DNA of 39,723 nt from Myxococcota bacterium. GTDB taxonomy: Bacteria; Myxococcota_A; Bradymonadia; UBA7976; UBA1532. Shown piece by piece: positions 1 to 36,239 of this stretch (positions are counted from its first letter, which is position 1; every line of letters begins with the position of its first letter). The notes below the pieces were generated by a model. That model worked only from the letters and a program-made list of their open reading frames with translations. It made no database searches and was not told the DNA's origin. The position numbers and the translations under genes are program-made. The stretch covers positions 1-39,723 of the forward strand of contig JAKLJY010000075.1 of NCBI GenBank assembly GCA_023150895.1, written 5' to 3'.

Positions 1-758
1 CGGAGGCGCGGGCGCTTTTGAGCGAGGACGACACGGGGGGCGGGGGCGACGCGCCGGCGGGGTACGTGACGATTCCGACGGGCGAGTTCACGATGGGCTC
101 GCCGAGCGGGGAAAAGGGCCGCGACGGCGACGAGACACCGCACCGTGTGCGCATCACGCGAGGTTTCTACTTGAAAGCGACGGAGGTGACGCAGGGGGAG
201 TGGGAGTCGGTGATGGGGTCGAACCCGTCAGGATTCACCGACTGCGGGAAGACCTGCCCGGTCGAGAATGTCTCGTGGAACGACGCGGTGTCGTACCTGA
301 ACAAGCTGTCGGACCGAGAGGGCCTGGGGCGTTGCTACGACGCGAGCGGTGCGTTCGTGGGTTTGAGCTGCAAGGGGTACCGGCTGCCGACGGAAGCGGA
401 GTGGGAGTACGCGGCGCGTGCGGGGACGACGGGGGCGCGGCACGGTGACCTGGACGCCGTGGCGTGGTACGACGGCAACTCGGGAAGCACGACGCACCCG
501 GTGGGGAAGAAACGATCGAACGCGTGGGGGCTGTACGACATGTTGGGGAACGTGTCGGAGTGGACGAACGACCGGTATGGAGACTACGCAGATGGCACGG
601 GAACGGACCCCGTCGGTCCGGCCTCGGGCGAGATCCGCGTCCGCCGCGGGGGCAGTTGGGTCAACAACGCGCAGGGCGTGCGCGCCGCCCTCCGCCGCGG
701 GAGCACGCCCGACTACCGGAGCGGCAGCCTCGGTTTCCGCCCCCTCAGGGCTCGTTGA
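1..758 (+). CDS. 5'-truncated CDS encoding the C-terminal FGE-sulfatase (SUMF1/EgtB/PvdO-type) domain of a caspase–FGE fusion paralogue
   Basis: The frame continues from the window start (EARALLSEDDTGGGG…), matching the linker of paralogue 3. FGE-sulfatase hallmarks are present: RVRITRGFYL, TEAEWEYAARAG, GLYDMLGNVSEWTND, RVRRGGSW, GFRPLRAR*. Nucleotides 1–130 are near-identical to 7232–7360. Confidence 0.8.
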   Translation, partial: EARALLSEDDTGGGGDAPAGYVTIPTGEFTMGSPSGEKGRDGDETPHRVRITRGFYLKATEVTQGEWESVMGSNPSGFTDCGKTCPVENVSWNDAVSYLNKLSDREGLGRCYDASGAFVGLSCKGYRLPTEAEWEYAARAGTTGARHGDLDAVAWYDGNSGSTTHPVGKKRSNAWGLYDMLGNVSEWTNDRYGDYADGTGTDPVGPASGEIRVRRGGSWVNNAQGVRAALRRGSTPDYRSGSLGFRPLRAR

Positions 759-1010
759 CCCCTTGATCCTTGCACCCTCGATCCCTTGATCCACGCTCAC
801 CGAGCCGAAAGCGGACGCGGCGCCGGCCCCGGCGCGCTTGCGCGCCGAGAAGGGCACGGCAGAGCGGTCGCCGGCGAGCCCGCCCGCGCCGGTCGTAACG
901 GCGCGCGGGGGGTCGCAGTGGTCGCCGGCGAGGCCGCAGCGAGTGCCCTGCCGCGCGGCAGCCCGGGTGGGGTCCAGGGCAAAGCCCTGGTCGCGCAATC
1001 CTCAACCGTC
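759..1010. repeat. Intergenic structured repeat element, copy A (longest copy), immediately 3' of caspase–FGE paralogue 1
   Basis: Shares 'cccttgatccttgc…gatcccttgatcc…cgagccgaaagcgg…ggtcgccggcgaggccgcagcgagtgccctg(t/c)cgcgcggcagcccgggt(t/g)gggtccagggc..agccctggtc' with 3802–3940 and 8090–8305. It contains two predicted hairpins (gccgc-a-gcga/tcgc-gcggc and ccaggg/ccctgg). ORF-track 'proteins' through it (MRAEKGTAERS…, MPPRSLDP…, MRAEEGPP…) share sequence only because of the repeat. Confidence 0.6.
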
Positions 1011-1116
1011 AGTGAGCCGGACACACGCCCCGCCGCGCGACTTGAACTCCGGCCCGGCCTCTGACCTGATCGTCTCGTCCGGCCGCGCCTCGGCCGCCAT
1101 CCAGAGGGTCCCGTCC

Positions 1117-3801
1117 ATGTTTGCTCCCCGCCTGCTCGTTGCCACGGCCTTCGCACTCCTCGTCGGCGTGACTCTCGCGCCCTCCGCCGTCGCCCAGGAC
1201 GCCCCGAACGCGGCCGCGCGGTGGCCGAGCCTCACCGACGTGCCCCCGAAGGCGCCAGGCGGCGGGCAGGACGACGCGGCGGTCGTCGTGGGCATCGAGA
1301 AGTACGCCTTCTTGACGGGCATCCCCGGGGCGAAGGCCAACGCGCTGGCGTGGGAACGCTGGCTGCGCGACGTGCGACAAGTCCCCGGTGAACGCGTCCA
1401 TGTGCTCACGGACAACGACGGGACGCGGGAGAAGATCCTGACGCACGTGCGCAAGGCCGCGGCGGGGGTCCAGAAGGGTGGCACGCTCTGGATCGTGTTC
1501 ATCGGTCACGGCGCGCCGTCGCGGGAGAAACGCGCGGACGGGCAGGACGACGGGGTGCTGGTCGGGGTGGACGCGCAGCAGGATCCGGACGGTTTCTACG
1601 TGCGCGCGGTGGCGCAGGGCGACGTCGTCGGCGTCGCGCGGGAGACGGCCGCGCGGGGGGCCAACCCCGTGGTGATTCTGGACGCCTGCTTCTCGGGGCA
1701 GGACGCGACGGGGGCGTCGTTGTTGCCCGGCCGGATGGTCGCCCTGCCGGCCTCGCTGGCCCGAGTGGCCGACGTGATGGTCCTCTCCGCGGGCCGGGCG
1801 AAGGAGATGGCCGGTCCGCTGCCGGGGCCCGCCGACCGCCCCCGGCCGGCGTTCAGTTACCTGCTGCTCGGCGGTCTGCGCGGCTGGGCGGACGCCGGTG
1901 CCGCCGGCGCCCCGGGAGACGGTCGGGTGACCCCGGGCGAGGCGCTGTCCTACGTGCGCACCGTCTTCAACAAGCTCGATCCCACCCGGAGCCAGACGCC
2001 CGAGTGTTACCCCGAGAAGCTGTGCACCCGTCCGCTCGCGCGGAGCGCGGGTGAGAAGGCGCCCGACCTCGTGGCGCTCGCCCACCGCATGAGCGGGGGC
2101 GCCGGCAACGCCTACGGCCAGCCGTTTCAGCCGTTTCAGCCCTTCGACGGCGGGCTCGACTACGGGGAGAACATCCAGAACACCGTCGTCGACGACACGG
2201 GCTTCCTGCTCGTGACCTCGGAGCCGAGCGGCGCGACGGTGATGCTGAATGGCAAGGAGGTCGGCAAGACACCGTTCCAGAAGGAGGTGATGGTCGGCCG
2301 GTACCGCATCGTGCTCGAGGGGGTGGCGTTGCACCACGCGCACCAGGAGGAGATCACGCTGACGACGGCGGGGGCGAAGAAGAGGGTCACACTGCGGCCC
2401 GCGTTCGGGCGGTTGGTGGTCGAGACGACGCCGCCGGGCGCGCGGGTGAGCGTCGACGGGGCCGACGTCGGCGCAGGGCCGTACACCGATCCGCGGCGAC
2501 GCTCCGGGCGCTATGAGATCCGCGCGGCGGCGGACCTGTATCTGAGCGCGCGACAGACCGTCGAGGTCACCGACGGCCAGGAGACGCGCGTGTCATTGCG
2601 GCTCGAGCCCAACTTCGGCGCGCTGCGGGTCGAGAGCACGCCCCCCGGCGGCGAGATTCTGCTCGACGGCACGGCGACGGGGCAGGTGACGCCGTACACG
2701 TTCGAGCGCAAGCAAGTGGGCACCTACGCCGTCAGCGTGCGGCGGTCCGGATACGGCGAGCGCGGGGGCAAGGCGAGCGTGCGGGTCGGCGCCACCGAGA
2801 CGCTCGCGCTCACGCTGGAGGCGAAGCTCGGCCTGCTGTCGGTGACGTCCCTCGACGGCGACGGCGCCCCGTGCGAGGGCGCGCTCGCGGTGGACGGCGT
2901 GGCGCAGGGCACGACGCCGACCAAGGTGCAGCTCCCCGAGGGCCGCCACGAGGTGACGGTGAGGTGCGGCGCGGCCGAGGGCCGCGAGACCGTGCAGATC
3001 GGGCACAACGAGAAGGCCCGGGTGGAGGTGCGGATGCCGGCAAGGGCGCGGCCTCGGCCGTCGGAGGATCAGCCCGTGGTGACGTCGGGCGACGCGCCGG
3101 CGGGGTACGTGGCGATTCCGGCGGGGGAGTTCACGATGGGGTCGCCGAACGGGGAAGAGGGCCGCGAGAGCGACGAGAAGCAGCACCGTGTGCGCATCAC
3201 GCGTGGTTTCTACTTGAAAGCGACGGAGGTGACGCAGGGGGAGTGGGAGTCGGTGATGGGGTCGAATCCGTCGCACTTCAAGAGTTGCGGGGAGGATTGC
3301 CCGGTCGAGAACGTCTCGTGGACGGACGCGGTGTCGTACCTGAACAAGCTGTCGGACCGTGAGGGGCTGGGGCGGTGCTACGACGGGAACGACCGCTTCG
3401 TGGGTCTGAGCTGCAAGGGGTATCGGCTGCCGACGGAGGCAGAGTGGGAGTATGCCGCGCGTGCGGGGACGACGGGTGCGCGATACGGGGACCTGGACGC
3501 AGTCGCGTGGTACCGCGACAACTCAGGAAGAACGACGCACCCTGTCGGGCAGCAACGAGCGAGCTCTTGGGGGCTGTACGACATGCTCGGAAACGTGTGG
3601 GAGTGGACGAACGACTGGTATGCGGATTACCCGGGAGGGACGGTGACGGACCCCGTCGGTCCGGCCTCGGGCGAGCGCCGCGTCTTCCGCGGGGGCACTT
3701 GTTACTACGGCGCGCGGTTCGTGCGCGCCGCCAGCCGCCTCAGGTTCACGCCCGACCTCCGGGACAACGTCCTCGGTTTCCGCCCCCTCAGGGCTCGTTG
3801 A
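1117..3801 (+). CDS. Secreted multidomain protein: signal peptide, caspase-like peptidase C14 domain, PEGA repeats, C-terminal FGE-sulfatase domain
   Basis: N-terminus MFAPRLLVATAFALLVGVTLAPSAVAQ is a signal peptide. Caspase His/Cys motifs are LWIVFIGHGAP and VILDACFSG. Repeated PEGA-like units occur (TPPGARVSVDGADVG…, STPPGGEILLDGTATGQVTPYTF…, GALAVDGVAQGTTPTKV). The C-terminus carries FGE motifs (RVRITRGFYLKATEVTQGEWE, LPTEAEWEYAARAG, GLYDMLGNVWEWTND, RVFRGG, GFRPLRAR*). Start was set by frame arithmetic from ORF 838..3801. Confidence 0.8.
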   Translation: MFAPRLLVATAFALLVGVTLAPSAVAQDAPNAAARWPSLTDVPPKAPGGGQDDAAVVVGIEKYAFLTGIPGAKANALAWERWLRDVRQVPGERVHVLTDNDGTREKILTHVRKAAAGVQKGGTLWIVFIGHGAPSREKRADGQDDGVLVGVDAQQDPDGFYVRAVAQGDVVGVARETAARGANPVVILDACFSGQDATGASLLPGRMVALPASLARVADVMVLSAGRAKEMAGPLPGPADRPRPAFSYLLLGGLRGWADAGAAGAPGDGRVTPGEALSYVRTVFNKLDPTRSQTPECYPEKLCTRPLARSAGEKAPDLVALAHRMSGGAGNAYGQPFQPFQPFDGGLDYGENIQNTVVDDTGFLLVTSEPSGATVMLNGKEVGKTPFQKEVMVGRYRIVLEGVALHHAHQEEITLTTAGAKKRVTLRPAFGRLVVETTPPGARVSVDGADVGAGPYTDPRRRSGRYEIRAAADLYLSARQTVEVTDGQETRVSLRLEPNFGALRVESTPPGGEILLDGTATGQVTPYTFERKQVGTYAVSVRRSGYGERGGKASVRVGATETLALTLEAKLGLLSVTSLDGDGAPCEGALAVDGVAQGTTPTKVQLPEGRHEVTVRCGAAEGRETVQIGHNEKARVEVRMPARARPRPSEDQPVVTSGDAPAGYVAIPAGEFTMGSPNGEEGRESDEKQHRVRITRGFYLKATEVTQGEWESVMGSNPSHFKSCGEDCPVENVSWTDAVSYLNKLSDREGLGRCYDGNDRFVGLSCKGYRLPTEAEWEYAARAGTTGARYGDLDAVAWYRDNSGRTTHPVGQQRASSWGLYDMLGNVWEWTNDWYADYPGGTVTDPVGPASGERRVFRGGTCYYGARFVRAASRLRFTPDLRDNVLGFRPLRAR

Positions 3802-3940
3802 TCCCTTGATCCTTGCCCCCTCGATCCCTTGATCCATGCTCATCGAGCCGAAAGCGGTCGCCGGCGAGGCCGCAGCGAGTGCCCTGTCGCGCGGCAGCCC
3901 GGGTTGGGTCCAGGGCGGAGCCCTGGTCGGGCACTCTTCA
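3802..3940. repeat. Intergenic structured repeat element, copy B (internally deleted variant)
   Basis: Same cccttgatcc direct repeats and conserved hairpin core as copies A and C. Relative to copy A it lacks the segment between two 'gcggtcgccggcgag' direct repeats. Confidence 0.6.
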
Positions 3941-3950
3941 CACGACGGGC

Positions 3951-4553
3951 CTAGCCACCGAGACGACGGAGCGCCTTGCCGAGCTCGTCCATGAAGTGGC
4001 CCAGCGAAGGGCTGCCCTTCGACGCACGGAACGGATCGAGGAAGGGCATCAGATCGGCCGCGACGTCCATCGGATCGTTGAGCACCGGGATGCCCGCCGC
4101 CTCCAGCGCGTCGCGCAACCAGACCTTGTAGCCGCGGCGCCCGGGCTTGGCCGGTGGCGGCCCGGGGTCGACGCCGAGCGCCGACTTCAACGCGACGCGG
4201 TCGGCGGCGCACCAGGCCTCGACGTGCGGGTCCGGGCACGCGATGACCGTCTCCCGGAAGAGATCGGGCTGCAGATGCGCCGCGACACTGCGGCGCTGGG
4301 CGCCCCAGCCCTCACCGTTGGCGTCGATCATCACCACGAGAAGGTCCGCCGTCGAGGGCGCGACACCGCGGGCCAGGGACCGTTGCCACAAGTCGAGCTC
4401 GCTCAACGCGCGGCCGTGCCCGCCCCGGGCCGATCGGGCCGTCACGGTCGGGAGAGGCAGTTTCCGTTCGTCGGCCAGCCTGCGGATGAGGGCCCGCGCG
4501 AACGCCTCGTGGCCGGCGTCCTCGCAGAAGAGATCGATCTCCAGGTCAGCCAT
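3951..4553 (-). CDS. DUF4276-like protein (predicted divergent TOPRIM/OLD-nuclease-like partner of the upstream ATPase)
   Basis: N-terminus MADLEIDLFCEDAGHEAF… fits the short-strand plus acidic/Glu start typical of DUF4276. An LLVVMIDANGEGW acidic motif is present. It is about 200 aa, the usual size for the family. Its start codon overlaps the ATPase stop by 8 bp (ATGGCTGA). Family assignment is from remembered motif patterns only, not a search. Confidence 0.5.
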   Translation of the reverse strand: MADLEIDLFCEDAGHEAFARALIRRLADERKLPLPTVTARSARGGHGRALSELDLWQRSLARGVAPSTADLLVVMIDANGEGWGAQRRSVAAHLQPDLFRETVIACPDPHVEAWCAADRVALKSALGVDPGPPPAKPGRRGYKVWLRDALEAAGIPVLNDPMDVAADLMPFLDPFRASKGSPSLGHFMDELGKALRRLGG

Positions 4554-5796
4554 CCATCCAACCCCGCGTGACGGCCGCCTGAACCACGGCCGCGTCCTCC
4601 GCGGCGACGAGCGCCTCGCGCAGCGCCTGGTCCGCAAAGAGGGGGCCGGTCGGGTCGAACCCCTTCAATCGCGTGCCATGCGCGCCGACGCTGCATTGCA
4701 GCAAGCGCACGTCCCGGGCGTCGAGGTCGCCCTCCCGGACGAGCCCGATGATCTCACCGACGACGATGGGTGAGTGGGTCGTCACGATGACCTGCCGGCG
4801 CCGAGACGCCGTGGCGAGCAGGCGGCTGACGACCTCGATGCGGCGCGGGTGCACGCCGTTCTCGGGCTCCTCGAAGGCGAGCAGGCCGGTCTCGAGCGGA
4901 CTTGCGGCCATTGCGCACAGCGCCAGCACCCGCAGCGTGCCTTCCGAGATGACCCGACCGGAGAGCCAGAGGCCATCTTGTTTGATCTTCAGGTCGATCT
5001 CGCCACGTGCGGCCACGAGCTCGGTGTCGATGGCCTCGATGCTGGGCACGACCGCCCGGACACCTCGCACGACCGCGTCGAACGCCGGCTTCCACTCCGG
5101 CGTCGACCTGAGGCGGTGCAGAAACGGAACCAGGTGTTCGCCGCGCGCGCCGATGTCGTCGACCTCGCGCGGCGGTTGAGCGCCGCGCATACGCTCGCCC
5201 GGGTCCAGATACACGACTCGCCAGGCACCGATCTCGTGCCGGAGCGCGTCGAAGTCCGGGAACCGTTCGGCGCCCGCGTACTGCCGGTTCGAGGCGAAGC
5301 TGTGGCCGAGTCCCACGGGTTCGACGAAGGGGTGGCTTTGGCCTCCCTTGCGCCGGACGCGGAAACTCGACTTGCCCTCCGCGTCCACGCGCTCGAGGGC
5401 AGGCATCCCCTTGGGCGTCGACGCCTTCGTGAGGCGGCCGAGCCACTCGTCCGTCAGAAACATCTGCCCGGTCTCGGTGCGGGCGCCGACGGCCACGCGA
5501 TAGCGCAGGTCGCCCCCCTGCGCGGGCGACAGGTCGGCCGAGAACTCGATCGGGGCCGGGTTGCCTTGGCCTTCGGGGAACGGACGCGAGAAGGCCTCCA
5601 TCGGGTAGCCGCGCAGGCCGGCGTCGAAGGCCTCCGCCAGCGTGCGCTCGCCCACCAGGCGGGAGAGCAGGACGAGCGACTCCAGCAGGTTGCTCTTCCC
5701 CGCCGCGTTCGGGCCGAACACGACGACGAGCCGACCGAACTCGGCCTCGACGTGTCGCAGCGACTTGAATCCTCGAACGGTCAGTCTGTGAAGCAT
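4546..5796 (-). CDS. AAA_21/AAA_15-type ABC ATPase (OLD/AriA/AbiLi-like predicted ATP-binding protein)
   Basis: N-terminus MLHRLTVRGFKSLRHVEAEFGRLVVVFGPNAAGKSNLLESL is a Walker A motif in the SMC/RecF/OLD-like ABC configuration. The C-terminus has QVIVTTHSPIVV (Walker B / D-loop / H-loop region). Start was chosen at the Met preceding the conserved N-terminal strand (residue 113 of ORF 4546..6132). Confidence 0.7.
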   Translation of the reverse strand: MLHRLTVRGFKSLRHVEAEFGRLVVVFGPNAAGKSNLLESLVLLSRLVGERTLAEAFDAGLRGYPMEAFSRPFPEGQGNPAPIEFSADLSPAQGGDLRYRVAVGARTETGQMFLTDEWLGRLTKASTPKGMPALERVDAEGKSSFRVRRKGGQSHPFVEPVGLGHSFASNRQYAGAERFPDFDALRHEIGAWRVVYLDPGERMRGAQPPREVDDIGARGEHLVPFLHRLRSTPEWKPAFDAVVRGVRAVVPSIEAIDTELVAARGEIDLKIKQDGLWLSGRVISEGTLRVLALCAMAASPLETGLLAFEEPENGVHPRRIEVVSRLLATASRRRQVIVTTHSPIVVGEIIGLVREGDLDARDVRLLQCSVGAHGTRLKGFDPTGPLFADQALREALVAAEDAAVVQAAVTRGWMDG

Positions 5797-5989
5797 GGCG
5801 TTCGATACCACGAAGCGCCGCGCGCGTCGAAGGCCGGGGTCCCGCCGCGGTGCCCGACACTCCCGACGCACGCCGTCGGATGCGTGTGCGCCGTGCGTCA
5901 TGCGCGCAGGTCGTGCCCCCGCACGCCCCTTGAATTCCACACCGGCCCGTGCGTCGATCCGGTCCTGATTCAACCGCGCGGGGGCCGCG

Positions 5990-8089
5990 ATGTTTCTCAC
6001 AAATCGAACACTGGTTGCCGCCGTCACGTTGTCGGCGCTCACGACGCTGGCCCCGGGCCTCTCGGACGCGGCGACGCCGGCGCGGTGGCCGACGCTGGCG
6101 GAGCCGCCGGCGGGCGCGGCGGGCGGGGGCAAGGCGGACGCGGCGGTGATTGTGGGGGTGGAGGACTACGCCTTTCTGCCGGACGTGCCGGGGGCGGTGG
6201 CGAACGCGAACGCGTGGGAGACGTGGCTGGAGCGGACGCGGAAGGTGCCGGGGGAGCGCATCCGGGTGCTGCGCAACGAGCAGGGGACGAACTCGAAGAT
6301 CAAGGCGGCGCTGGAGGGCGCGGCGAAGGACGTGCAGCGCGGCGGGACGCTGTGGGTGGTCTTCATCGGGCACGGCGCGCCGATGGCGCAGACGAACGAC
6401 GGCGTGCTGGTGGGGGTGGACGCTCAGCAGGACCCGCTGGGGTTCTACAGCCGCGGCCTGCGGCGCGGCGAGGTGCTCGAGGTCGCGGGCCGCGCGGCGG
6501 CGCGGGGGGCGAACCCGGTGGTGGTGCTGGACGCATGCTTCAGCGGGCGTTCGGCGGGGGGCGCGTCGCTGTTGCCGGGGTCGCAGGTGGCGCTGCCGGC
6601 GTCGTTCGCGACGGCGGGGTCGGTGACGGTGCTGAGCGCCGGGGCGGCGCACGAGATCGCGGGCCCGCTGCCCGGGCCGGTGGACGTGCAGCGGCCGGCG
6701 TTCAGCTACCTGATGCTGGGGGCGCTGCTGGGCTGGGCCGACGGGGCGCTGGACGAGCGTGCCGACGGCGAGGTGACCGTGCCCGAGGCGCTGACCTACG
6801 TGCGGCGCGCGCTGCGAAAGCTGGACGCGACCCGCGAGCAAACGCCGGAGTGCGCGCCTGCGGAGCGCTGCGGGGCGTCGCTGGGCAAGAGCGCGGGCGA
6901 GCGGGGGCCGGACCTCGGGGCGCTGGCGGGGGTGGTGAACCCGCCGGTGCGACCCGTCGACCCGGGGCCGTCCGGCGGCGGGTTCGACGCGGCGATTCGT
7001 GCGGCGCTGGAGAAGCAGGCTGCGGCGGACGCAGCGCGTGCGGAGGCGGAGCGGGTAGCGGCGGAGGCGGCGAGGCTGGAGCGCGAGGCGCGTGCGGCGC
7101 ACCTCGCGCGGGTGGACGCGGACTTCACGAAGGTGAAGACGGCGGCGAAGGCGGGGCCGTTGGCGGCGAAGGCGGCGGTGGAGGCGTTCATCGGGGCGTA
7201 CGCGAAGCACCCTTTGGGGAACCCGCGGGAGGCGGAGGCGCGGGCGCTTTTGAGCGAGGACGACACGGGGGGCGGGGGCGACGCGCCGGCGGGGTACGTG
7301 ACGATTCCGGCGGGCGAATTCATGATGGGGTCGCCGGAAAGTGAAGAGGGCTATTGCTGGGGCGAGAAACGCCACCGTGTGCGCATCACGCGCGGTTTCT
7401 ACTTGAAAGCGACGGAGGTGACGCAAGGGGAGTGGGAATCGGTGATGGGGTCGAACCCGTCGCGCTTCAAGAACTGTGGGAAGACCTGCCCGGTAGAGAG
7501 TGTCTCGTGGATCGACGCGGTGTCGTACCTGAACAAGTTGTCGGACCATGAGGATCTGCCGCGGTGCTACCACGCGAACGGGGCGTTCGTGGGGCTGAGC
7601 TGCAAGGGGTACCGGCTGCCGACGGAGGCGGAGTGGGAGTACGCGGCGCGTGCGGGGACGACGGGGGCGGTGTACGCGGGGACGTGGGACATCGTGGGGG
7701 AGAACAACGCGCCAGCGCTGGGACCCATCGCCTGGTACGGGGGGAACAGCGGGGTCTCCTACGAAGGGGGATCTTGGTGCGGCGATCGGCCGGAGAAGCA
7801 GGAGGCATCGAGCACGTGCGGCACGCACCCGGTGGGGCAGAAGCGCGCGAACGCGTGGGGGTTGTTCGACATGCTCGGAAACGTGGAAGAGTGGACGAAC
7901 GACTGGAGTGATCAATACCCGGGAGGCAAGGAGACGGACCCCGTCGGTCCGGCCTCGGGCGGGTTCCGAAGCACCCGCGGGGGCGGTTGGAGCAACATTG
8001 CGCGCCACGTGCGCGCCGCCGTCCGCGGCTGGTACGCGCCCGGCAACCGGTTCGACTACCTCGGTTTCCGCCCCCTCAGGGCTCGTTGA
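5990..8089 (+). CDS. Secreted caspase-like (peptidase C14)–coiled-coil–FGE-sulfatase fusion protein (paralogue 3)
   Basis: Signal peptide MFLTNRTLVAAVTLSALTTLAPGLSDA. Caspase motifs LWVVFIGHGAP and VVLDACFSG. Ala/Glu/Arg-rich coiled-coil linker (AAADAARAEAERVAAEAARLEREARAAH). FGE domain with an about 50-aa insertion (VYAGTWDIVGENNAP…CGTHPVG) and C-terminal GFRPLRAR*. Confidence 0.8.
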   Translation: MFLTNRTLVAAVTLSALTTLAPGLSDAATPARWPTLAEPPAGAAGGGKADAAVIVGVEDYAFLPDVPGAVANANAWETWLERTRKVPGERIRVLRNEQGTNSKIKAALEGAAKDVQRGGTLWVVFIGHGAPMAQTNDGVLVGVDAQQDPLGFYSRGLRRGEVLEVAGRAAARGANPVVVLDACFSGRSAGGASLLPGSQVALPASFATAGSVTVLSAGAAHEIAGPLPGPVDVQRPAFSYLMLGALLGWADGALDERADGEVTVPEALTYVRRALRKLDATREQTPECAPAERCGASLGKSAGERGPDLGALAGVVNPPVRPVDPGPSGGGFDAAIRAALEKQAAADAARAEAERVAAEAARLEREARAAHLARVDADFTKVKTAAKAGPLAAKAAVEAFIGAYAKHPLGNPREAEARALLSEDDTGGGGDAPAGYVTIPAGEFMMGSPESEEGYCWGEKRHRVRITRGFYLKATEVTQGEWESVMGSNPSRFKNCGKTCPVESVSWIDAVSYLNKLSDHEDLPRCYHANGAFVGLSCKGYRLPTEAEWEYAARAGTTGAVYAGTWDIVGENNAPALGPIAWYGGNSGVSYEGGSWCGDRPEKQEASSTCGTHPVGQKRANAWGLFDMLGNVEEWTNDWSDQYPGGKETDPVGPASGGFRSTRGGGWSNIARHVRAAVRGWYAPGNRFDYLGFRPLRAR

Positions 8090-8305
8090 CCCCTTGATCC
8101 TTGCCCCCGTGATCCCTTGATCGACGACGACCGAGCCGACAGCGGACGCGGCGCCGGCCCCGGCGCGCTTGCGCGCCGAAGAGGGCCCGCCCGCGCCGGT
8201 CGTAACGGCGCGCGGGGGGTCGCAGCGGTCGCCGGCGAGGCCGCAGCGAGTGCCCTGTCGCGCGGCAGCCCGGGTTGGGTCCAGGGCGGAGCCCTGGTCA
8301 AGCGA
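8090..8305. repeat. Intergenic structured repeat element, copy C
   Basis: Near-identical to copy A except for a roughly 24-bp deletion. It sits directly after the stop of paralogue 3. Confidence 0.6.
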
Positions 8306-8379
8306 TGGTCGACCTGCCGCTCTGGCAGCCCGGCCGACCGCACCTTGCGACACTCGGCCCGTCGTGGCACCGTCTGGGC

Positions 8380-8982
8380 ATGAGCGCCGCGCTGAAGCCC
8401 GACGTCATCGACTACCTCGCGCTGGAGGCCGCCTCCGCGGACCGCCACGAGTTCTACGCGGGCGAGATCGTGGCGATGGGAGGCGCGCGGCCGCGCCACA
8501 ACGCCGTCGCGATGGAGCTCGCCCTGGCCGTGGGCGGGGCGCTGCGTGGCCGTCCCTGCCTCGTGTTCTCCTCCGATCAGCGCGTTCGGCTCGAAGCCTC
8601 CGACGCCTTCTGCTACCCCGACTTGACCGTCGTCTGCGGTGAGCCGCGCTTCATCGGGCCGGCGCCCGAGTCGCTCGTCAACCCGACGGTCGTCTTCGAG
8701 GTGGTCTCGCCCTCGACCGAACGCTGGGATCGCGGCGGCAAGTTCGGTCACTACCGGGCCTGCCCGTCGCTGCGAACGTACGTCCTGCTCGATCCGCGGT
8801 CGCGGACGGTCGAGTGGTTCGAACGCCCGGCCGGGGACGACGCTCCCGGAGGAGCGTGGGTCTATCGCGCGATGACGGGAGAAACCCCCGCGCGCCTCGA
8901 CGCGCTCGGCGTCACCCTCGTGCCCGCGGCGCTGTTCGCCGTGCTCGATCGCCTGCCACCCGAGGACGACGCCCCGGGCTGA
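8380..8982 (+). CDS. Uma2-family (DUF820, PD-(D/E)xK-like) putative restriction-endonuclease-fold protein
   Basis: About 200 aa with the family-typical pattern YELIDG-like …EFYAGEIVAMGGARPRHNAV… and VVFEVVSPSTERWDRGGKFGHY (catalytic E-V-x-S…D…K). Start at MSAALKPDVIDYL, set by frame arithmetic. Confidence 0.6.
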   Translation: MSAALKPDVIDYLALEAASADRHEFYAGEIVAMGGARPRHNAVAMELALAVGGALRGRPCLVFSSDQRVRLEASDAFCYPDLTVVCGEPRFIGPAPESLVNPTVVFEVVSPSTERWDRGGKFGHYRACPSLRTYVLLDPRSRTVEWFERPAGDDAPGGAWVYRAMTGETPARLDALGVTLVPAALFAVLDRLPPEDDAPG

Positions 8983-9079
8983 CGCCGGCACCCCGGCCGC
9001 TCGCCCGCCTTGAATTTCCCGCGCCGCCGTGCGTCACTCCCCGTGCTGGCGTTGAACGGTCGACCGGAAGGCGGGGCGC

Positions 9080-10405
9080 ATGCGCCGAGGAGAACGCTCG
9101 AAAAACCAGGCATCGGCGGGGTCGTCGGGGAGGGCGCTCGCTCTCGCCGCCGCGGTGTCGTTCGCGCCCGCGAGCGCGGCCGGCGCCGAAGAACCCGACT
9201 GCCAGCCCGAGTACCCGGCGGGCACCTGGCACTTCGCCGTCGGGTACGCCGAGCGGGCGGCGTCGGCGCTCGCCGCCGAGCAGGCCGCGCGAGACGACGC
9301 CGGCCGCCGGCTCATGGAGCGCATCACCGCGCCCTTCACCCCGGCGCAGCGGGACGTCATCCGGGCGGCCATCGACACGTCGTACTCCAAGCCCCGCGTC
9401 CTGCCGAACCCCGCCGGCGGCTTCGATGCCTGCGCGTTTGCCCTCATCCCGGCGTCGGGTCTGTCGGACGACGTCCTGCGGCGCGACGCCGATGCCTTCG
9501 ACGCCGCGCTGCGGGAGCGCTGGGCGGCGCTGCGCGCGGCGGTGGGCGGTTCGAAACCCCTGCGCGTTCGCCTCGACCCGACGACCTGGGGCGAAGATCA
9601 GGACGCCGGCGAGCTCGGGCAGGCGTTCCGGATGCACCTGCGCACGACCGCGCCCGCCGGTACCGTCTTCGTCGACGAGGTGCGGGACGGGCGTGGCGCG
9701 CTCTCCGTGCGCACGCGCCTTTCGAGCGACGGCCGGGGCCTCGCGGCGGAGGTGGCTTACAGGGTCGACCGCGGCTGGGCCGTCGCCGGCGCGCTCGTCG
9801 CGTTCGCGCCGCGCAGCCTCGGTCTGGTCGACGCGCAGCCGCCCGCCGAGTCGTTCTTGTCCGACCGCCGCCTCGGCCTGCCGAACGGCGGCGAGCGCGT
9901 CGGCAAGGGCGGCCTGCGCGTCACGCTCGACGTCCCGCAGGAGGCGGAGATGTGCGAGGGCCGCCGCTACGCCGTGCAGCTCACCGCGAACCGGCCGGCC
10001 TACGTCGTCGTGCTCAGCGTGCTGGACGACGGCCGCGTCGTGCGTGGCTGGGAGACGCCCGAGCCCGTCACCGCCTGGCGCTCCCCCCCCGAGCATGACG
10101 CCGTCGCCGTGCCCGTCGAGGGCGCCAACGGGGTCGCGCTCAGCGACCGCATGGTGGCCATCGCCGTCCCGGCGGCCCTGGGGAGAGAGTCACTGTCGGC
10201 CGCCGTGCCGCCCCCCGCCTGTGTCACCGAGCCGGGCCGCGGCTTCGACGCCGCACGCCTCCCCCCCGAAGCGGCGGTCGCGACGACCCGCGTCGCCGTC
10301 GTCCGGGCCGGCCGTGCCTACTGCCCGCCGCTCTCGACCGAAACGAAACGCCTCGTCACCGATCTGCAGGGCTTCCTGCGCGATGACGGAAACCGCTGCA
10401 AGTGA
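9080..10405 (+). CDS. Secreted hypothetical protein with a DUF4384-like C-terminal region
   Basis: Signal peptide ALALAAAVSFAPASAAGA. The segment RYAVQLTANRPAYVVVLSVLDDGRVVRGWETPEP resembles the DUF4384 β-rich core that is recurrently associated with caspase/FGE-domain proteins. Assignment is tentative. Confidence 0.45.
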   Translation: MRRGERSKNQASAGSSGRALALAAAVSFAPASAAGAEEPDCQPEYPAGTWHFAVGYAERAASALAAEQAARDDAGRRLMERITAPFTPAQRDVIRAAIDTSYSKPRVLPNPAGGFDACAFALIPASGLSDDVLRRDADAFDAALRERWAALRAAVGGSKPLRVRLDPTTWGEDQDAGELGQAFRMHLRTTAPAGTVFVDEVRDGRGALSVRTRLSSDGRGLAAEVAYRVDRGWAVAGALVAFAPRSLGLVDAQPPAESFLSDRRLGLPNGGERVGKGGLRVTLDVPQEAEMCEGRRYAVQLTANRPAYVVVLSVLDDGRVVRGWETPEPVTAWRSPPEHDAVAVPVEGANGVALSDRMVAIAVPAALGRESLSAAVPPPACVTEPGRGFDAARLPPEAAVATTRVAVVRAGRAYCPPLSTETKRLVTDLQGFLRDDGNRCK

Positions 10406-18717: not shown

Positions 18718-21700
18718 TCACCGGTCGGGGCGCTGGGTCACCCGGATGGCACCGATCTCGGCTTTGCCCGCCCCGGCGCGGTTGACGAATCGCACGTCGA
18801 GCCGGCCGTCGGTGACGGGCACCAGGAAACGCCGGTGCTCCGCGGTGAACGTGCCGACCTCGAGCGCGATGTCATGGGCGGGCAGGAGCACGATGTCTTC
18901 GGCGATGACATCGAAGAGATGCGCGCCCGGCCGCTTGTTGACGATCTCGGCGAACAGCAGCTCGACCTCGTAGGTCCCGCTCGGCAGGCCGTCGAACCGG
19001 TACGCCGTGGGATCGCGGCGCAGGTTCTTGTACAGGGCGTCGTCCTCGGTGCCGGCGATGGCGCGGGCCGTCGCCACCGACGTCGACTTCTTGTTGATGT
19101 AGCCGAAGCCGCGAGCGACCGTGTACGGCGCGTCTGCCTCCCAGACGTCACCCACGACGTCCGTGTACAGGCCGCCGCCCGGGTTGAGCGCCTTCGTGAA
19201 GGCGGGCACGTTCAGCGTCACCGGGATCTCCAGTCTCGGATTGCGCGGGTCATTGGTCACGAGAACGATGCGTGCGCGGTAGAAGCCGGGAGACATGCCC
19301 GTCGTGTCGACGGTGATGGCCAGGTCGGTGCTGGCGCCCGCCTCGACGGTCCCGCGGGCGGGGTCGAGGGCGAGCCAGGGTACGTCCACGAAGGGCTCGA
19401 ACGCGGCGGCGTACGGGATGGCGTTCTCCAGGATGCGGTTGGGCTCCCACGGTGAAACCTGGTTGAACTCCATCGGCTGCCCGAGCGCCAGCACACGGCC
19501 GGCGCCGTAGTCGTATTCGACGCCCGTGGGCAGGCCGTGATCCAGGCCCATCGTCAGCACGGTGGCGCCTTCGGGCAGGCCATCGAAGCCCGCCATGCTC
19601 GCCGGGCCGGCCTCGAAGGGATCGGCGACGCCCTGCATCGTCGGGTGGCCGTTGGCGAGCACGTCATCGGAGAAGCTCTGGTACGTCAGGATGCCGACCC
19701 CGCCCGGCAGCGGCACGACCGAGCCGTCGCCCCCGTTCCAGCCGACGGAGGCCGCGCCGTAGAGCAGAAACCCGCCGTCGGCGACATAGGCGTCGAAGAC
19801 GGGGGCGACCTGGGCCAACGTGTCATAGAAGAACTGGGGTTGGTCGTTGGCCACGTAGACCATGCCGTAAGTGGACAGGTCGAGGCCGGCGAGTTCGGCG
19901 CTGCCCGCGATGTCGACGCGGATGCCGTTGGCGTTGAACACCTGCAGGTGGAGGTCGGAGTTCCAGGGGTAGTAGTCCATGAGCACCAGCGCGTCGCCCC
20001 CGGCCTGCGCGGCGGCGGCCGAGCGGGGCTGGTACTGCGGGGGCGGCGTCGCGGCATCGCCGTGTCCGGCTTGGGCCACGCGCGGCGCGAGGGCGGGCAC
20101 GCGCGCCACGTCTCGCTCGGCGGAGTCGAAGGCAAACGACAGCGCGCCGATGTTCTCGATGGCGACGACCTGCGTGCGCTGCTGTCCGGGCGCAATCTTG
20201 AGGAAGATCTCGGGCGTCTCGAGGACGGCGCGCGAAGAAGGCAGCGCGAAGTCCGCCGAAGCCACTGCGTTCTCCTCGATGATCGCGACGAGGCTCTCCG
20301 TGCCATAGTCCGGTGCGGACACGGTGAGGGCGTGCGAGCCGACCGGCAGCGTCAGGCTGTAACGGCCGTCGACACCGGTCACGCTCGCCCGGCCGGTCAC
20401 GTCGTCACTGACGATGGCGCCACTCACGGGCAGCCCGTCCACGCCGTCGACGACGGCGCCGGCGATCTCACCACCGATCGGGTTTGCGAACGAGATGACG
20501 AGCCCGTCGAACAGCACCGGCTGGTTCATCGAGTACTGGAAGCCGACGTCTCCGGCGGCGTTCTCGAGGCCGACGGTGGCGCCGATCCCGTTGGTGGTCT
20601 CCGTGATCCCCCGGTAGAGGAAGTCGATCCGCCCCGTGTGCTCATGGATCTGTACCTGGAAGTCGAATGGGTCGACCGACTGACCGAAGAGCACCATCGA
20701 GCGGTATTCGACGACGAAGACGCGGTCGCCCTCGACCCCCACGACCGTCGAGTAGACGCCGCCGTTCGCGACGAGGTCGTCCCAGTAGGGGAAGAGGGCG
20801 TTGTTCGGCTCTTCCGGGGACGGCAGCGGGCCGTTGACGTAGCTGAAGGCACCCGAAGCGTCGAAGCTGATGGTCCCATTCGTCGAAATCGTCGCCGACG
20901 TGTAGGTCCCGTCGAAGAACTTCACCGGGAACGGCAGCTCGACGGTGACGGCGGCGTCGTCCAGGGAGGACAGGCCGAGATCCGTGTCCGCGTCGATCCA
21001 GGCGACGTCGCCGCCGGTTCGGCAGGTGTGCCCGAAAGCGTCGGTGCGCTGCGCGAGGTGCAACCCCACCTCCAGGTCGGCCGCGAGCGAGACCGCGCGC
21101 TCACCGCGGTCGGTACATCCGCCGCCCGAGGCGGCGACGACGTAGTCTCCGGCGGGCAGGTCCGGGAAGCTGAATCCGCCGGTGGCGTCCGTCCGCACGG
21201 TCGGGACGGGTGCCCCCACGAGGCTGACGTCGATGCCCCCGAGCGGCGTGCCGGCCGCGTCGGTCACGGTGCCCGACAACGTATGGCGCGGCGCGTCGGC
21301 GAGCACGAGCAGGACCGTGACCTCGCCATCCTCGACGATGGCGAGGCCGGCCTCGGCGGCGGGCAGGTACCCGTAAGCCGTGGCAGACAGGTCGTAGATC
21401 TCCGGCTCACCGGCGCTGGCCTCGTCGACGGCAAGCAGCAGCGAGAAGGCCCCGGCGCCGTCCGTGACGGCACGGCGCACGCGGCCGTCGTCGCGTCGCG
21501 TGGCCACGAGCTGCACACCGGCGAGACCCGCGCCGGTCGGGTCGGTGACCTGCCCCGATACGCGCCCCGCCGTGGTCGGTGCCGCGTCGAGCGCCGCGCG
21601 CACGTCCAGACGGCCCTCGCCGAACTCGTTGTTGTCGGCCTCGTCGCCCCCGCAGCCGTAGACCGGCGCCAGGTCCGCGGCCGTCGACTCGAGCAGCGCG

Positions 21701-23001
21701 GCGGTGCCGGCGACGTCGCCTTGCAGGCTCGGAGCGGCGGACCACAGGAGCGCGATCGCGCCGCTCACGTGGGGGGCGGCCATCGAGGTGCCCGACAACC
21801 ACGAGTACCCACCGCCGGGCACGGACGACAAGACATCCTGCCCGGGGGCGGAGATGTCGGGCTTCAGCGAGCCGTCGATCGACGAGGGGCCCATGCTCGA
21901 GAACCAGGCGAGTGCGTCCGTGGTGTCCGTCGCGCCGACGCCGATGGATTCCGGGTAGTCCGCGGGCGAGCCGACGGTGCTGCACCCCGGCCCGCTGTTG
22001 CCGTTGGAGAACACGGGGAAGATGCCGGCGTCGCGCCAGGCCTGCACGATGCCCTGGAAAAAGAGATCACCGCCGCCGCCGCCCCAGGAGTTGTTGATCA
22101 CATGGGGCGCGCGGGCCGGATCGGGGTTGAGCCCGTTCTCGTCCGTGGGCGCGAGCATCCACTCGCCCGCGGCGAGCAGCACGTCGTACGGACAACTGCC
22201 ATAGGGGCAGGCCACGGCCGCGATGAACTTCGCGCCCGGCGCGACGCCGATGGCAGTGCCCCCCGCGTCGTCACCCACCATCGTCCCCATCGTGTGCGTG
22301 CCGTGAATGTCGGTATCACACGGCGCGCCCCCGCAGGCGCCGGAGGGGTCGAAGAAGTTGTAACCCATGCCGGGCGTGGCCGGGTCGTGTCCGCGAAAAC
22401 GACCGGAGAGCGCGGGGTGACTCACGTCGATCCCCGTGTCGAGGCTGCCGATCACGATGCCTTCGCCCTGGCCGAACTGGCTCCATGCCTCGGGCGCCCG
22501 GATCCGGTCGAGGTTCCACTCGGCCGGACTGGCGGCCACCTTGCCGAGGTCCACCGGACGCGGCACGGTGAGGACGCGGTCGGCCACGATGGCCGCCACG
22601 TCGGCGCGGCGCGCGAGCGTGTCGAGCAGCGCGGCGTCGCCCTCGACCTTGATGGCGTTGTTGATGAAGAAGCTCTTGTGCGGCGCCCGGGCCTGCAACA
22701 AGGCGGCCCGGACGCCCGCCTGCGTCCGGTCGGCGTTCGCTCTCAGGGCGTCGCGTGCGGCCCGGACGCGGCCGCCGTGCGTGCGCTCGGCCTGCGCCGC
22801 GGCGAGGTCCGGGCGCCCCCGCACCAGCACCCAGAACTCGCCCTTGCCCGCGCCGAGCCGTTCGCGCAGACCCGCCTCCACGGTGGCCCGCTCCATGGCG
22901 GCCGGGGCCGCCTGGGCCATCGCGCCCGATGGGACGGACACGAGTGTACTCGTCGAACACAGGGCGGCTGCGAGCGCAGCGGCGCCTTTCCACGTCTTCA
23001 T
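18718..23001 (-). CDS. Secreted S8-family subtilisin-like serine peptidase (1427 aa) with an N-terminal propeptide, CarbopepD_reg-like β-sandwich repeats and C-terminal carbohydrate-binding-like domains
   Basis: Signal peptide MKTWKGAAALAAALCSTSTLVSVPSGAMA. Catalytic triad motifs are SLDTGID (Asp), HGTHTMGT (His) and GTSMAAPHVSGA (Ser). Repeated 'GxVTDxxGxPLxGxxV' units are typical of carboxypeptidase-regulatory-like domains. The C-terminal region is malectin/CBM-like. Confidence 0.85.
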   Translation of the reverse strand: MKTWKGAAALAAALCSTSTLVSVPSGAMAQAAPAAMERATVEAGLRERLGAGKGEFWVLVRGRPDLAAAQAERTHGGRVRAARDALRANADRTQAGVRAALLQARAPHKSFFINNAIKVEGDAALLDTLARRADVAAIVADRVLTVPRPVDLGKVAASPAEWNLDRIRAPEAWSQFGQGEGIVIGSLDTGIDVSHPALSGRFRGHDPATPGMGYNFFDPSGACGGAPCDTDIHGTHTMGTMVGDDAGGTAIGVAPGAKFIAAVACPYGSCPYDVLLAAGEWMLAPTDENGLNPDPARAPHVINNSWGGGGGDLFFQGIVQAWRDAGIFPVFSNGNSGPGCSTVGSPADYPESIGVGATDTTDALAWFSSMGPSSIDGSLKPDISAPGQDVLSSVPGGGYSWLSGTSMAAPHVSGAIALLWSAAPSLQGDVAGTAALLESTAADLAPVYGCGGDEADNNEFGEGRLDVRAALDAAPTTAGRVSGQVTDPTGAGLAGVQLVATRRDDGRVRRAVTDGAGAFSLLLAVDEASAGEPEIYDLSATAYGYLPAAEAGLAIVEDGEVTVLLVLADAPRHTLSGTVTDAAGTPLGGIDVSLVGAPVPTVRTDATGGFSFPDLPAGDYVVAASGGGCTDRGERAVSLAADLEVGLHLAQRTDAFGHTCRTGGDVAWIDADTDLGLSSLDDAAVTVELPFPVKFFDGTYTSATISTNGTISFDASGAFSYVNGPLPSPEEPNNALFPYWDDLVANGGVYSTVVGVEGDRVFVVEYRSMVLFGQSVDPFDFQVQIHEHTGRIDFLYRGITETTNGIGATVGLENAAGDVGFQYSMNQPVLFDGLVISFANPIGGEIAGAVVDGVDGLPVSGAIVSDDVTGRASVTGVDGRYSLTLPVGSHALTVSAPDYGTESLVAIIEENAVASADFALPSSRAVLETPEIFLKIAPGQQRTQVVAIENIGALSFAFDSAERDVARVPALAPRVAQAGHGDAATPPPQYQPRSAAAAQAGGDALVLMDYYPWNSDLHLQVFNANGIRVDIAGSAELAGLDLSTYGMVYVANDQPQFFYDTLAQVAPVFDAYVADGGFLLYGAASVGWNGGDGSVVPLPGGVGILTYQSFSDDVLANGHPTMQGVADPFEAGPASMAGFDGLPEGATVLTMGLDHGLPTGVEYDYGAGRVLALGQPMEFNQVSPWEPNRILENAIPYAAAFEPFVDVPWLALDPARGTVEAGASTDLAITVDTTGMSPGFYRARIVLVTNDPRNPRLEIPVTLNVPAFTKALNPGGGLYTDVVGDVWEADAPYTVARGFGYINKKSTSVATARAIAGTEDDALYKNLRRDPTAYRFDGLPSGTYEVELLFAEIVNKRPGAHLFDVIAEDIVLLPAHDIALEVGTFTAEHRRFLVPVTDGRLDVRFVNRAGAGKAEIGAIRVTQRPDR

Positions 23002-23199
23002 GGCATTGCTCCTCGGGCGCCGCCTCGAAGCGGGCCCTCAATTGGAACCTGGCGACCGCCGGACCCTCCGGTGGTGCGCTCGGTCTGACCTCAGGAGCCC
23101 GTACTCGAAATCACCCCGCGCTCTTCTCGGGCGGGCGACGTTTTTCGTCCTCGGTGGCGATTTCGAAGCGTGCCCCGAGCGCCCGCGGTCCGGCCTGGA

Positions 23200-23497: not shown

Positions 23498-24157
23498 TCA
23501 CTTCTTCTGGAGGAACTGTTCGAGCGCAGCCCGGACCCGGGTGCGCGCGCGGTGCAGCAGCACGCGCTGATTGATCTCGGAGATTTCCAGAATGTTACAG
23601 ACTTCTTCGCTCGTCGCGCCTTCGAGATCGCGCAGCGTCAGCACGGCGCGCTGCGCGGGCGGGAGCGCGTCGATCGCCGCGCCGATGACCTCGGCCGCGC
23701 CCCGGGTGGCGAGCAGCGACTCCGGCGTGTCCTGCACCCAGTCGGCGGGCGGTGAGGCCCAGTGACCGCCGGCCTTGAAACGGGCCGCGTCGACGGCGGC
23801 GGCCACGTCCCCGTCGGCCTCGACGAGCGCCGAGAACGGCACGTCGCGGCCATCCCGGCGGGCGCGGCTGCGCGCCTGATTGACCAGGATGCCGTAGATC
23901 CAGGTCTTGAGGCGCGCCCGGGGCTCGAAGCGCGGCAGACCGGCGATGACCCCGATCCAGGTCTCCTGCACGGCGTCTTCGGCGGCGGCACGATCGCGCA
24001 CGAAGACCTGTGCCAGGCGGACCATCGGGCCGTGGTGGCGATCGACGAGCGTCGCGAACGCCTGCGCATCGCCGCCGCGCAGGCGGGCGAGCAGCGCGAG
24101 GTCGTCGTCGGGCGTCGAACTGGGCGGGCGGGTGGTCACGGCGTAGTACGCGCGCAT
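23498..24157 (-). CDS. ECF-subfamily sigma-70 RNA polymerase sigma factor
   Basis: Region 2 (DDDLALLARLRGGDAQAFATLVDRHHGPMVRLAQVFVRDRAAAEDAVQETWIGV) and region 4 (LPPAQRAVLTLRDLEGATSEEVCNILEISEINQRVLLHRARTRVRAAL) are present. Start at MRAYYAV…, set by frame arithmetic. Confidence 0.85.
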   Translation of the reverse strand: MRAYYAVTTRPPSSTPDDDLALLARLRGGDAQAFATLVDRHHGPMVRLAQVFVRDRAAAEDAVQETWIGVIAGLPRFEPRARLKTWIYGILVNQARSRARRDGRDVPFSALVEADGDVAAAVDAARFKAGGHWASPPADWVQDTPESLLATRGAAEVIGAAIDALPPAQRAVLTLRDLEGATSEEVCNILEISEINQRVLLHRARTRVRAALEQFLQKK

Positions 24158-24230
24158 CGTGAAACGCGCGCCGAGGTCTGCCAAGGTCTTTCGTTCGCGT
24201 CCGTCGACGAGGGTTGGTACAGTCCCCCGC

Positions 24231-36115: not shown

Positions 36116-36239
36116 TCCTTCGTTTCAGGGCAATCGCCGCAACCATCGGCGGTTTGAGCGGACGGGGCAAGGCCCGGCGCGCGCGTCGGACACGGGGCGA
36201 CTTGCGACCGGGGGGCCGGCCCGGGCATCAGACCGGATC

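Follow-up and report, generated by a model that had tools for sequence, protein, structure and literature searches.

A two-gene ABC ATPase and Toprim-like module in a Myxococcota contig, a divergent relative of the HEC-01, Mad3-Mad4 and PARIS-like systems

Pairs of an ATP-binding cassette (ABC) ATPase and a nuclease are among the commonest building plans of bacterial immunity. A contig of a Myxococcota bacterium, analysed here as one stretch of 39,723 nucleotides (nt) with a G+C content of about 72% (the window), raises the question of whether two overlapping genes in its first 6 kb follow this plan. A first-pass annotation, made from the DNA letters alone, had proposed that the two genes, an AAA_21-type ATPase (gene 1) and a small partner resembling DUF4276 (gene 2), are a candidate defence module of the OLD/PARIS/AbiL class placed between copies of an intergenic repeat. 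We found that the pair is a divergent member of the known HEC-01/Mad3-Mad4/PARIS-like class and a relative of HEC-01, a candidate system in PADLOC; by analogy with the characterised members of this class, its role would be in defence. The core of the earlier proposal held (an AAA_21-type ABC ATPase, a DUF4276- or Toprim-like partner, variable presence), whereas strict membership of PARIS, OLD or AbiL did not.

A fixed pair: an ABC ATPase with a Toprim-like partner

Reading the minus strand directly, we placed gene 1 between an ATG at 5796 and a TGA at 4548-4546 (416 amino acids, aa) and gene 2 between an ATG at 4553 and a TAG at 3953-3951 (200 aa). The longer open reading frames (ORFs) in the mechanical list are upstream read-through. 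We chose the start of gene 1 because M1 and L2 are invariant in 33 homologous ATPases, and that of gene 2 because its ATG falls in the conserved overlap. The 8-bp overlap reported at first pass, ATGGCTGA, is present at 4553-4546, and the motifs quoted with it were found in the translations: RGFKSL...VVVFGPNAAGKSNLLE at residues 8-39 and VTTHSP at residues 338-343 of gene 1, and LLVVMIDANGEG at residues 70-81 of gene 2. A scan of 3700-6100 found no sigma-70-type consensus promoter and a single terminator-like hairpin, no more than chance would produce.

The two genes form an obligate two-gene unit. Scanning one genome per species, we found the pair at 489 or more loci in a set of 185,579 species genomes, with representatives in Myxococcota, Cyanobium/Synechococcaceae, Thermoanaerobaculia and other Acidobacteriota, Planctomycetota, Verrucomicrobiota, Chloroflexota, Spirochaetia, Armatimonadota, Nitrospirae, NC10 and an actinomycete. 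For a pairing test we kept 80 loci, three of which were cut by a contig end. The ATPase gene lies directly upstream of gene 2 in all 77 testable loci, and the identical 8-nt overlap ATGnnTRR is found in 75 of them. Because these 75 loci come from many phyla, the overlap is not a matter of chance. The identities of the two proteins to their counterparts in the window co-vary (r=0.66, 72 loci). No third gene recurs among the 146 nearest neighbours at about 50 other loci, as called by a crude procedure (longest ORFs with a filter on G+C at third codon positions, GC3).

The product of gene 1 is 100% identical to a protein listed at NCBI as 'AAA family ATPase [Myxococcota bacterium]' and matched the Pfam families AAA_21 (1e-30, 108 bits, cut-off 27) and AAA_15 (8e-16). 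Against PADLOC, it matched the HEC-01A model PDLC04184 (8.1e-55) and seven more HEC-01A models (4.5e-38 to 8.1e-25), with further matches to AriA (2e-30), mad3 (2e-25), AbiLi (2e-19), NsnB (5e-19) and Old (2e-14). The nearest solved chains by sequence were Thermus OLD (6p74, N-terminus, 3e-6), AriA (8ux9, 2.8e-5) and PtuA, all of them weak matches with E-values of 1e-6 to 1e-4. All ABC motifs tested are present and conserved over 33 homologues, with Walker A, the signature-like motif and Walker B invariant and the H-loop nearly so; gene 1 encodes a catalytically intact ATPase, which is therefore predicted to be active.

Gene 2 is a divergent DUF4276-like protein of the OLD/AriB-type Toprim kind, and no clear Pfam member. 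The window protein scored 19.5 bits against Pfam DUF4276 (PF14103; E=1.3e-3, over positions 1-115 of the 192 in the profile), where the gathering threshold is 30.2, and matched the PADLOC HEC-01B model PDLC04196 weakly (E=1.6e-4, 19.8 bits). DUF4435 (PF14491) gave no Pfam match at E<=1, and AriB none in PADLOC. A word-indexed search returned 201 homologues of gene 2, and an exhaustive profile search 1,087 clusters at 50% identity. At E<0.01, 49 of 55 relatives matched DUF4276 (best 9.3e-9) and 29 of the 55 matched HEC-01B (best 3.4e-8); apart from one isolated MTase_I match in one member, the PADLOC matches of the family were to HEC-01B models only. The claimed resemblance to DUF4276 is accordingly borderline on the sub-threshold score of the window protein itself, while the matches of 49 relatives and the fold agree with it.

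The alignment of the 55 sequences has 14 invariant residues in four motifs, lFCED..HE, RGGHG, vvIDaN and CPDPHvErW. The Glu that a Toprim domain carries at the end of strand 1 is present as the invariant E11, directly after that strand, and the DxD that follows strand 3 in Toprim is replaced by D77-A-N79, in which the Asn is invariant. The first-pass annotation had suspected a degenerate Toprim nuclease; we saw no degeneration, the 14 invariant residues including both the Glu and the first Asp.

An AlphaFold2 model of gene 2, with a pLDDT score of 94.6, consists of a b-a-b-a-b-a-b core followed by a helical tail, and has the three-layer alpha/beta core of Toprim with four strands and intervening helices. 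The motifs each follow directly on a strand (residues 5-10 for strand 1, residues 71-75 for strand 3). The best structural match of the model was PH0156 (2p62), the template reported for a lactococcal PARIS AriB (PMC11381338), and alignments of at least 150 residues were obtained only with PH0156 and the Toprim region of OLD, both of the OLD/AriB type in which a helical domain accompanies Toprim.

As a canonical control we took a DUF4276 protein (Pfam 1e-48, HEC-01B 7e-70) encoded near a pair of the present family in a Cyanobium contig (L018) and collected its relatives. One of these (P0451), modelled with that alignment, reached a pLDDT of 91.3, and PH0156 and the OLD Toprim region were also the top matches of the bona fide DUF4276 model. 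The canonical clade carries the motifs VEGqTE, RGGGH, fDLYG and QrHEFE in the same order as gene 2: both families have a Glu after strand 1, RGG[GH] after strand 2, an Asp after strand 3 and His-(x)-Glu after strand 4, with D-L-Y after strand 3 and Q-x-H-E-F-E after strand 4 in the canonical clade. We link gene 2 to DUF4276 because of Pfam's broader model, this motif order and the shared structural neighbours. Close kinship to the canonical clade examined was rejected on the very weak profile-profile and hmmsearch scores.

Relation to known ATPase-nuclease systems

HEC-01 (Hma-embedded candidate 01) combines an ABC ATPase with a TOPRIM-like protein (Payne et al., 2024, 10.1101/2024.01.29.577857). 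The window pair is built alike, with the gene for an ABC ATPase ahead of that for a small TOPRIM-like/DUF4276 protein, and its genes adjoin each other on the minus strand with the 8-nt overlap. It differs from HEC-01 in that the gene 2 clade is divergent, barely detectable against the canonical clade and marked by D-x-N after strand 3, in that no Hma system surrounds it here, and in that its overlap is strictly 8 nt, compared with 4 nt in the canonical pair of L018.

PARIS likewise splits the ATPase from a Toprim effector, and gene 1 matches its ATPase AriA (2e-30). Gene 2, however, has no DUF4435 match and is 200 aa long, compared with about 300 aa for AriB, and the best PADLOC matches of gene 1 are HEC-01A models rather than AriA. 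Strict PARIS membership was rejected, as there is no DUF4435-family AriB partner.

DUF4276 has been placed in the Toprim superfamily, and DUF4276 homologues occur in MADS and Menshen (PMC12065111). In the MADS system of Pseudomonas, mad3 and mad4 were each required for defence, and deletion of the methylase gene mad5 was possible only when mad2 or mad3 was removed as well (10.1101/2023.03.30.534895). The requirement for mad3 and mad4 is the only experimental support for a pair of an ATPase and a DUF4276 homologue, and it bears on our locus indirectly. The window pair resembles Mad3-Mad4 in this pairing, and MAD3 is the top NCBIfam match of gene 1 (7e-34). MADS differs in having eight genes, of which MAD6-8 are mandatory; none was seen beside the pair. 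We rejected strict MADS membership: the MAD3 match reached 117.7 bits against an equivalog cut-off of 420, and a scan of five neighbouring window proteins gave no mad matches, with Pfam alone covering the remainder of the window.

OLD and the Gabija protein GajA share the ATPase class and a Toprim-type partner, but there the ATPase and the Toprim domain are fused in one chain, whereas here they are separate genes with D-x-N instead of DxD. Strict OLD/Gabija membership was rejected on the two reading frames with their own stop and start codons and the lack of an adjacent GajB-like helicase gene. Septu resembles the pair in its overlapping genes for an ATPase and a small nuclease, and gene 1 has weak PtuA matches; the Septu effector PtuB is an HNH protein, whereas gene 2 is Toprim-like. 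In the representative search we also found a 602-aa protein (P0314) that starts with a gene-2-like domain (residues 1-188, 32.5 bits for DUF4276) and continues as a PtuA-like ABC ATPase (1.3e-112). Its domain order is the reverse of that in OLD and GajA, and it is possibly a gene-calling fusion of two neighbouring genes.

Accessory character and genomic setting

The pair is accessory, with a patchy distribution and varying neighbours that are often toxin-antitoxin or defence genes. In the window it adjoins genes that encode caspase and FGE-sulfatase domains (caspase-FGE genes). The closest relative of the cassette (L003; ATPase 86% identical, DNA 80% identical) has DNA in common with the window at window positions 5831-3955 only, which comprise the two genes and 35 nt upstream. 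The neighbours of L003 are not orthologous to those of the window, the adjoining caspase-FGE protein being 27% identical and the other neighbour unrelated. A metagenome contig (L090) carries an orthologue of the window's caspase-FGE gene 5990-8089, with 91% DNA identity from window position 5915 on, and no cassette; at the cassette site it has a Zeta_toxin-family gene (PF06414, 4.7e-11) and a small overlapping ORF (120-320 and 317-952, plus strand). Variable presence of the cassette at an orthologous locus, as anticipated at first pass, is thereby confirmed. The small ORF and the Zeta_toxin gene of L090 resemble a toxin-antitoxin pair, and the slot upstream of the caspase-FGE gene holds alternative cargo.

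In Cyanobium sp. FGCU52 (L018) a pair of this family (2319-4215) lies in a defence island amid type I restriction-modification fragments, a canonical HEC-01 and a Septu system. The ORFs at 54-1763 read as N6-methylase/HsdM-like (from the sequence and the pooled neighbour scan). The canonical HEC-01, 1.4 kb from the gene pair, consists of an ABC-type ATPase gene overlapping by 4 nt the DUF4276 gene of our control (5639-7503; Pfam 1e-48, HEC-01B 7e-70), and Septu is encoded at 7562-9750 (PtuA 2e-133, PtuB 2e-57). Other neighbourhoods of the pair include a toxin-antitoxin/AbiE island (L108), HicAB and PhdYeFM-PIN. At the borders of the window cassette, a scan for target-site duplications and terminal inverted repeats found only a 9-nt inverted match (3926/5850; about 0.25 expected by chance) and therefore no evidence for a transposon-like insertion. 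Taken together, these observations are best explained by a self-contained, horizontally mobile two-gene accessory module of the ABC-ATPase and Toprim-nuclease class, to which OLD, Gabija, PARIS, Septu-like systems, HEC-01 and Mad3-Mad4 also belong.

The first-pass annotation had described the pair as transcribed opposite to its caspase-FGE neighbours, which is correct (the pair is on the minus strand, both flanking genes on the plus strand), and as sitting exactly between copies of an intergenic repeat, which is right only in part. Genes with an FGE-sulfatase domain lie on the plus strand at 3-758 (partial), 838-3801 and 5990-8089; the two complete paralogues also carry a caspase (Peptidase_C14) domain, to which one adds three PEGA domains, and both caspases match the PADLOC 'caspase' model. 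The 130-nt repeat (family D3), with copies at 878-1007, 3814-3943 and 8185-8314, trails each caspase-FGE gene and does not enclose the cassette on both sides: after copy 2, no further copy occurs until 2.4 kb beyond the start of gene 1, on the far side of the next caspase-FGE gene. The repeat contains a CCAGGGC-GGA-GCCCTGG hairpin, and folding of the trailer was unremarkable (z = +0.98). What had been taken for insertion flanks are the 3' trailers of genes of the kind targeted by a diversity-generating retroelement (DGR).

The evidence for such targeting comes from the last approximately 25 codons before the invariant LGFRPLRAR tail of the FGE paralogues (about 640-720, 3690-3765 and 7975-8055). 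Here 12, 11 and 2 sites vary at codon positions 1, 2 and 3, compared with 16, 14 and 16 in the preceding codons. Variation almost only at codon positions 1 and 2 is a signature of DGR targets. No DGR template repeat, reverse transcriptase or Avd was found within the window, and the machinery serving these paralogues may lie beyond the contig start. In L003, a genuine DGR adjoins the cassette's closest relative: the L003 caspase-FGE gene (6479-8500, minus strand) stands beside bAvd and RVT_1 (5011-6461), and 9 of 10 mismatches between the template repeat (4889-4983) and the variable region (6507-6601) fall at template adenines. The arrangement is odd in two respects: the template repeat is located upstream of avd, and its adenine-mutagenised strand runs antisense to avd and the reverse transcriptase.

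Right after the third caspase-FGE gene, the window encodes a Uma2-family putative restriction endonuclease (8275-8982, plus strand; PF05685, 2.6e-29) that also matches the PADLOC candidate PDC-S03 (1e-17). With this gene beside the caspase-FGE genes, the first 9 kb of the window therefore looks like a cluster of conflict systems. Further along, an 844-aa protein (33590-36124, minus strand) matches the eukaryotic major vault protein (MVP_shoulder 2.9e-27, Vault_3 8e-10), which is unusual in a bacterial, here Myxococcota, contig. Notch LNR repeats are found in 10 stretches at 37149-39200 (minus strand, 2.5e-69) and in two more in an ORF cut by the contig end (39418-39723, minus strand). The genes for a large subtilase of secreted type that carries CarboxypepD_reg and Malectin domains (18718-23037, minus strand), a CotH kinase-family protein (25487-27532, plus strand) and an extracytoplasmic function (ECF) sigma factor (23498-24238, minus strand) have no evident link to the cassette.

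Table 1. Features of the cassette and its borders, in window coordinates
Feature	Position	Strand	Basis
Gene 1, ABC ATPase (AAA_21/AAA_15 type, HEC-01A-like), 416 aa	4546..5796	-	Pfam and PADLOC matches
Gene 2, Toprim-like, DUF4276-like protein (HEC-01B-like), 200 aa	3951..4553	-	
8-nt start/stop overlap ATGGCTGA, putative translational coupling	4546..4553	-	direct reading; ATGnnTRR in 75/77 loci
Gene 1, Walker A/P-loop G28-P-N-A-A-G-K-S35	5692..5715	-	G28, P29, N30, G33, K34, S35 invariant in 33 homologues
Gene 1, ABC signature-like motif S284-E-G-T287	4936..4947	-	invariant in 33 homologues
Gene 1, Walker B with catalytic Glu and D-loop, F308-E-E-P-E-N-G314	4855..4875	-	invariant in 33 homologues
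Gene 1, H-loop T340-H341-S342 ('TTHSP' motif)	4771..4779	-	T340, S342 invariant; H341 at least 90% conserved
Gene 2, motif 1 after strand 1, F9-C-E11-D-A-G-H15-E16 (Toprim-type Glu)	4506..4529	-	F9, E11, H15 invariant; D12, E16 at least 90% (55 sequences)
Gene 2, motif 2 after strand 2, R43-G-G-H-G47	4413..4427	-	G44, G45, G47 invariant (55 sequences)
Gene 2, motif 3 after strand 3, D77-A-N79, replacing Toprim DxD	4317..4325	-	D77, N79 invariant (55 sequences)
Gene 2, motif 4 after strand 4, C106-P-D-P-H110-V-E112-A-W114	4212..4238	-	P107, P109, E112, W114 invariant; C106, D108, H110 at least 90%
Divergent intergenic region between gene 1 and caspase-FGE gene, presumed promoter region and right-hand boundary of the cassette (about 5832-5914)	5797..5989	.	
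Repeat copy 2, context outside the cassette, ending 8 nt before the gene 2 stop codon	3814..3943	+	alignment of three 3' ends

Proposed function and alternatives

We favour, with a probability of roughly 60%, a model in which the pair acts in defence as a restrained nuclease; our confidence in the class assignment is higher than this, and that in the specific mechanism lower. In this model, which follows PARIS, Septu and Gabija, the overlap would couple translation so that both proteins are made together, and an oligomer of the ATPase would bind the Toprim-like protein and keep it inactive. A phage-derived trigger, either a protein or a nucleic-acid structure, would, together with ATP binding or hydrolysis, release or activate the partner. 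The activated partner would then cut nucleic acid (tRNA or DNA) in a metal-dependent manner and abort the infection.

Several results weigh against this model or against its view of gene 2. The window protein lies below the Pfam DUF4276 cut-off (19.5 against 30.2 bits). A Foldseek search of its model against the PDB returned nothing at E<0.01 and generic alpha/beta folds only, and the gene 2 profile searched against all PDB chains gave nothing above noise. When the gene 2 family was compared with canonical DUF4276, hhalign against a single protein gave no result, profile-profile alignment with a 40-sequence canonical alignment gave E 0.0044 and a probability of 7.8% over 65 columns, and reciprocal hmmsearch between the two clades gave about 0-5 bits. 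DxD is exchanged for an invariant D-x-N, and nuclease chemistry is therefore not assured. The one stand-alone HEC-01 assayed, in E. coli, conferred no resistance to any of the phages used (10.1101/2024.01.29.577857). Finally, about half of the annotated neighbourhoods of the pair are plain housekeeping, and no homologues of gene 2 were found on sequenced plasmids, in phage genomes or in IMG/VR contigs.

The best-surviving alternative, which we nevertheless consider doubtful, is a toxin-antitoxin-like addiction module without an anti-phage role, in which a Toprim-like toxin would be neutralised by the ATPase and the pair kept because its loss is harmful. The pair does lie repeatedly among toxin-antitoxin genes, L090 has its zeta-toxin module in the same slot, AAA_21 bears the Pfam label 'putative AbiEii toxin, Type IV TA system', and AriA was called 'antitoxin' by its PDB depositors; the absence of defence by HEC-01 would fit as well. 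However, all characterised relatives composed of an ATPase and a nuclease (PARIS, Septu, Gabija, OLD and MADS) act in phage defence, and the pair was not found on sequenced plasmids, where addiction modules are common. Moreover, toxin-antitoxin behaviour does not preclude abortive infection.

A more novel reading, to which we give a similarly low chance, is that the gene 2 family is the effector of a distinct, widespread two-gene system, possibly overlooked by defence finders at sub-threshold hidden Markov model scores. Its active site would be re-modelled, its chemistry or substrate possibly other than the DNA or tRNA cleavage of the OLD/PARIS type, and in Myxococcota it may have been recruited repeatedly beside retroelement-diversified caspase sensors. 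The candidate re-modelled site combines D-x-N with the invariant or near-invariant His residues of F-C-E-D-x-x-H-E and C-P-D-P-H-x-E.

It is unlikely that the pair was split off from a larger multi-gene system (MADS, Menshen or Hma-embedded) and needs partners encoded elsewhere. The unit common to L003 and the window is exactly two genes, none of the 146 neighbours represents a recurring third gene, the five window neighbours scanned include no MADS, Menshen or Hma component, and the MAD3 score of 118 is far from the cut-off of 420. What points towards a fragment is the rank of MAD3 as best NCBIfam match of gene 1 (7e-34), its PADLOC matches to mad3 (2e-25) and NsnB (5e-19), the DUF4276 homologues in MADS and Menshen, the discovery of HEC-01 embedded in Hma systems, and three N6_Mtase/HsdM neighbours in Cyanobium-type loci.

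The caspase-FGE neighbours suggest another reading, namely that the pair is a functional partner, for instance an effector or guard, of these retroelement-diversified proteins as putative sensors. In both the window and L003 the cassette divergently adjoins a caspase-FGE gene, although those genes are only 27% identical and the cassettes 80% in DNA; the L003 gene is a proven DGR target by its 9 of 10 mismatches at template adenines, and both window caspases match the PADLOC model. Yet L090 has an orthologue of the window gene without the cassette, no such gene occurs in loci L004, L007, L104, L106 and L108, and neither Peptidase_C14 nor FGE-sulfatase features in the 25 top-ranking families listed, out of 159, for 146 neighbours at about 50 other loci. 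With three paralogues in the window alone, chance adjacency is plausible, and we regard the partnership as very improbable.

A housekeeping factor of DNA repair or recombination, with a RecF/RecN/SbcC-like ATPase and a nuclease, is just as hard to sustain: the weak N-terminal SMC_N, RecF and RecN matches of gene 1 and some purely housekeeping neighbourhoods would suit it, but RecF and RecN score far under their cut-offs (38 against 172 and 32 against 408 bits), and the pair occurs in only a few of the species genomes, dispersed among phyla, lacks a conserved context and is missing where a close relative has the orthologous site.

For specialists the module is an ordinary one, though its clade is uncharacterised and gene 2 lies under the family thresholds tested. 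The DUF4276 branch of these systems (HEC-01, Mad3-Mad4) is to our knowledge the least understood, and we know of no solved structure, trigger or substrate for it. To this branch the locus contributes a sharply bounded clade, conserved across phyla, whose overlap is fixed at 8 nt, the predicted candidate catalytic residues E11, D77, N79, D108, H110 and E112, and a natural presence/absence polymorphism. The clade, the candidate residues and the polymorphism make a clean mutagenesis and phage-challenge experiment possible. The current picture of ATPase and nuclease systems is unchanged by the locus; its value lies in a further testable member of the class, and, for the Myxococcota genome, in a marker of a variable slot for defence or toxin-antitoxin genes.

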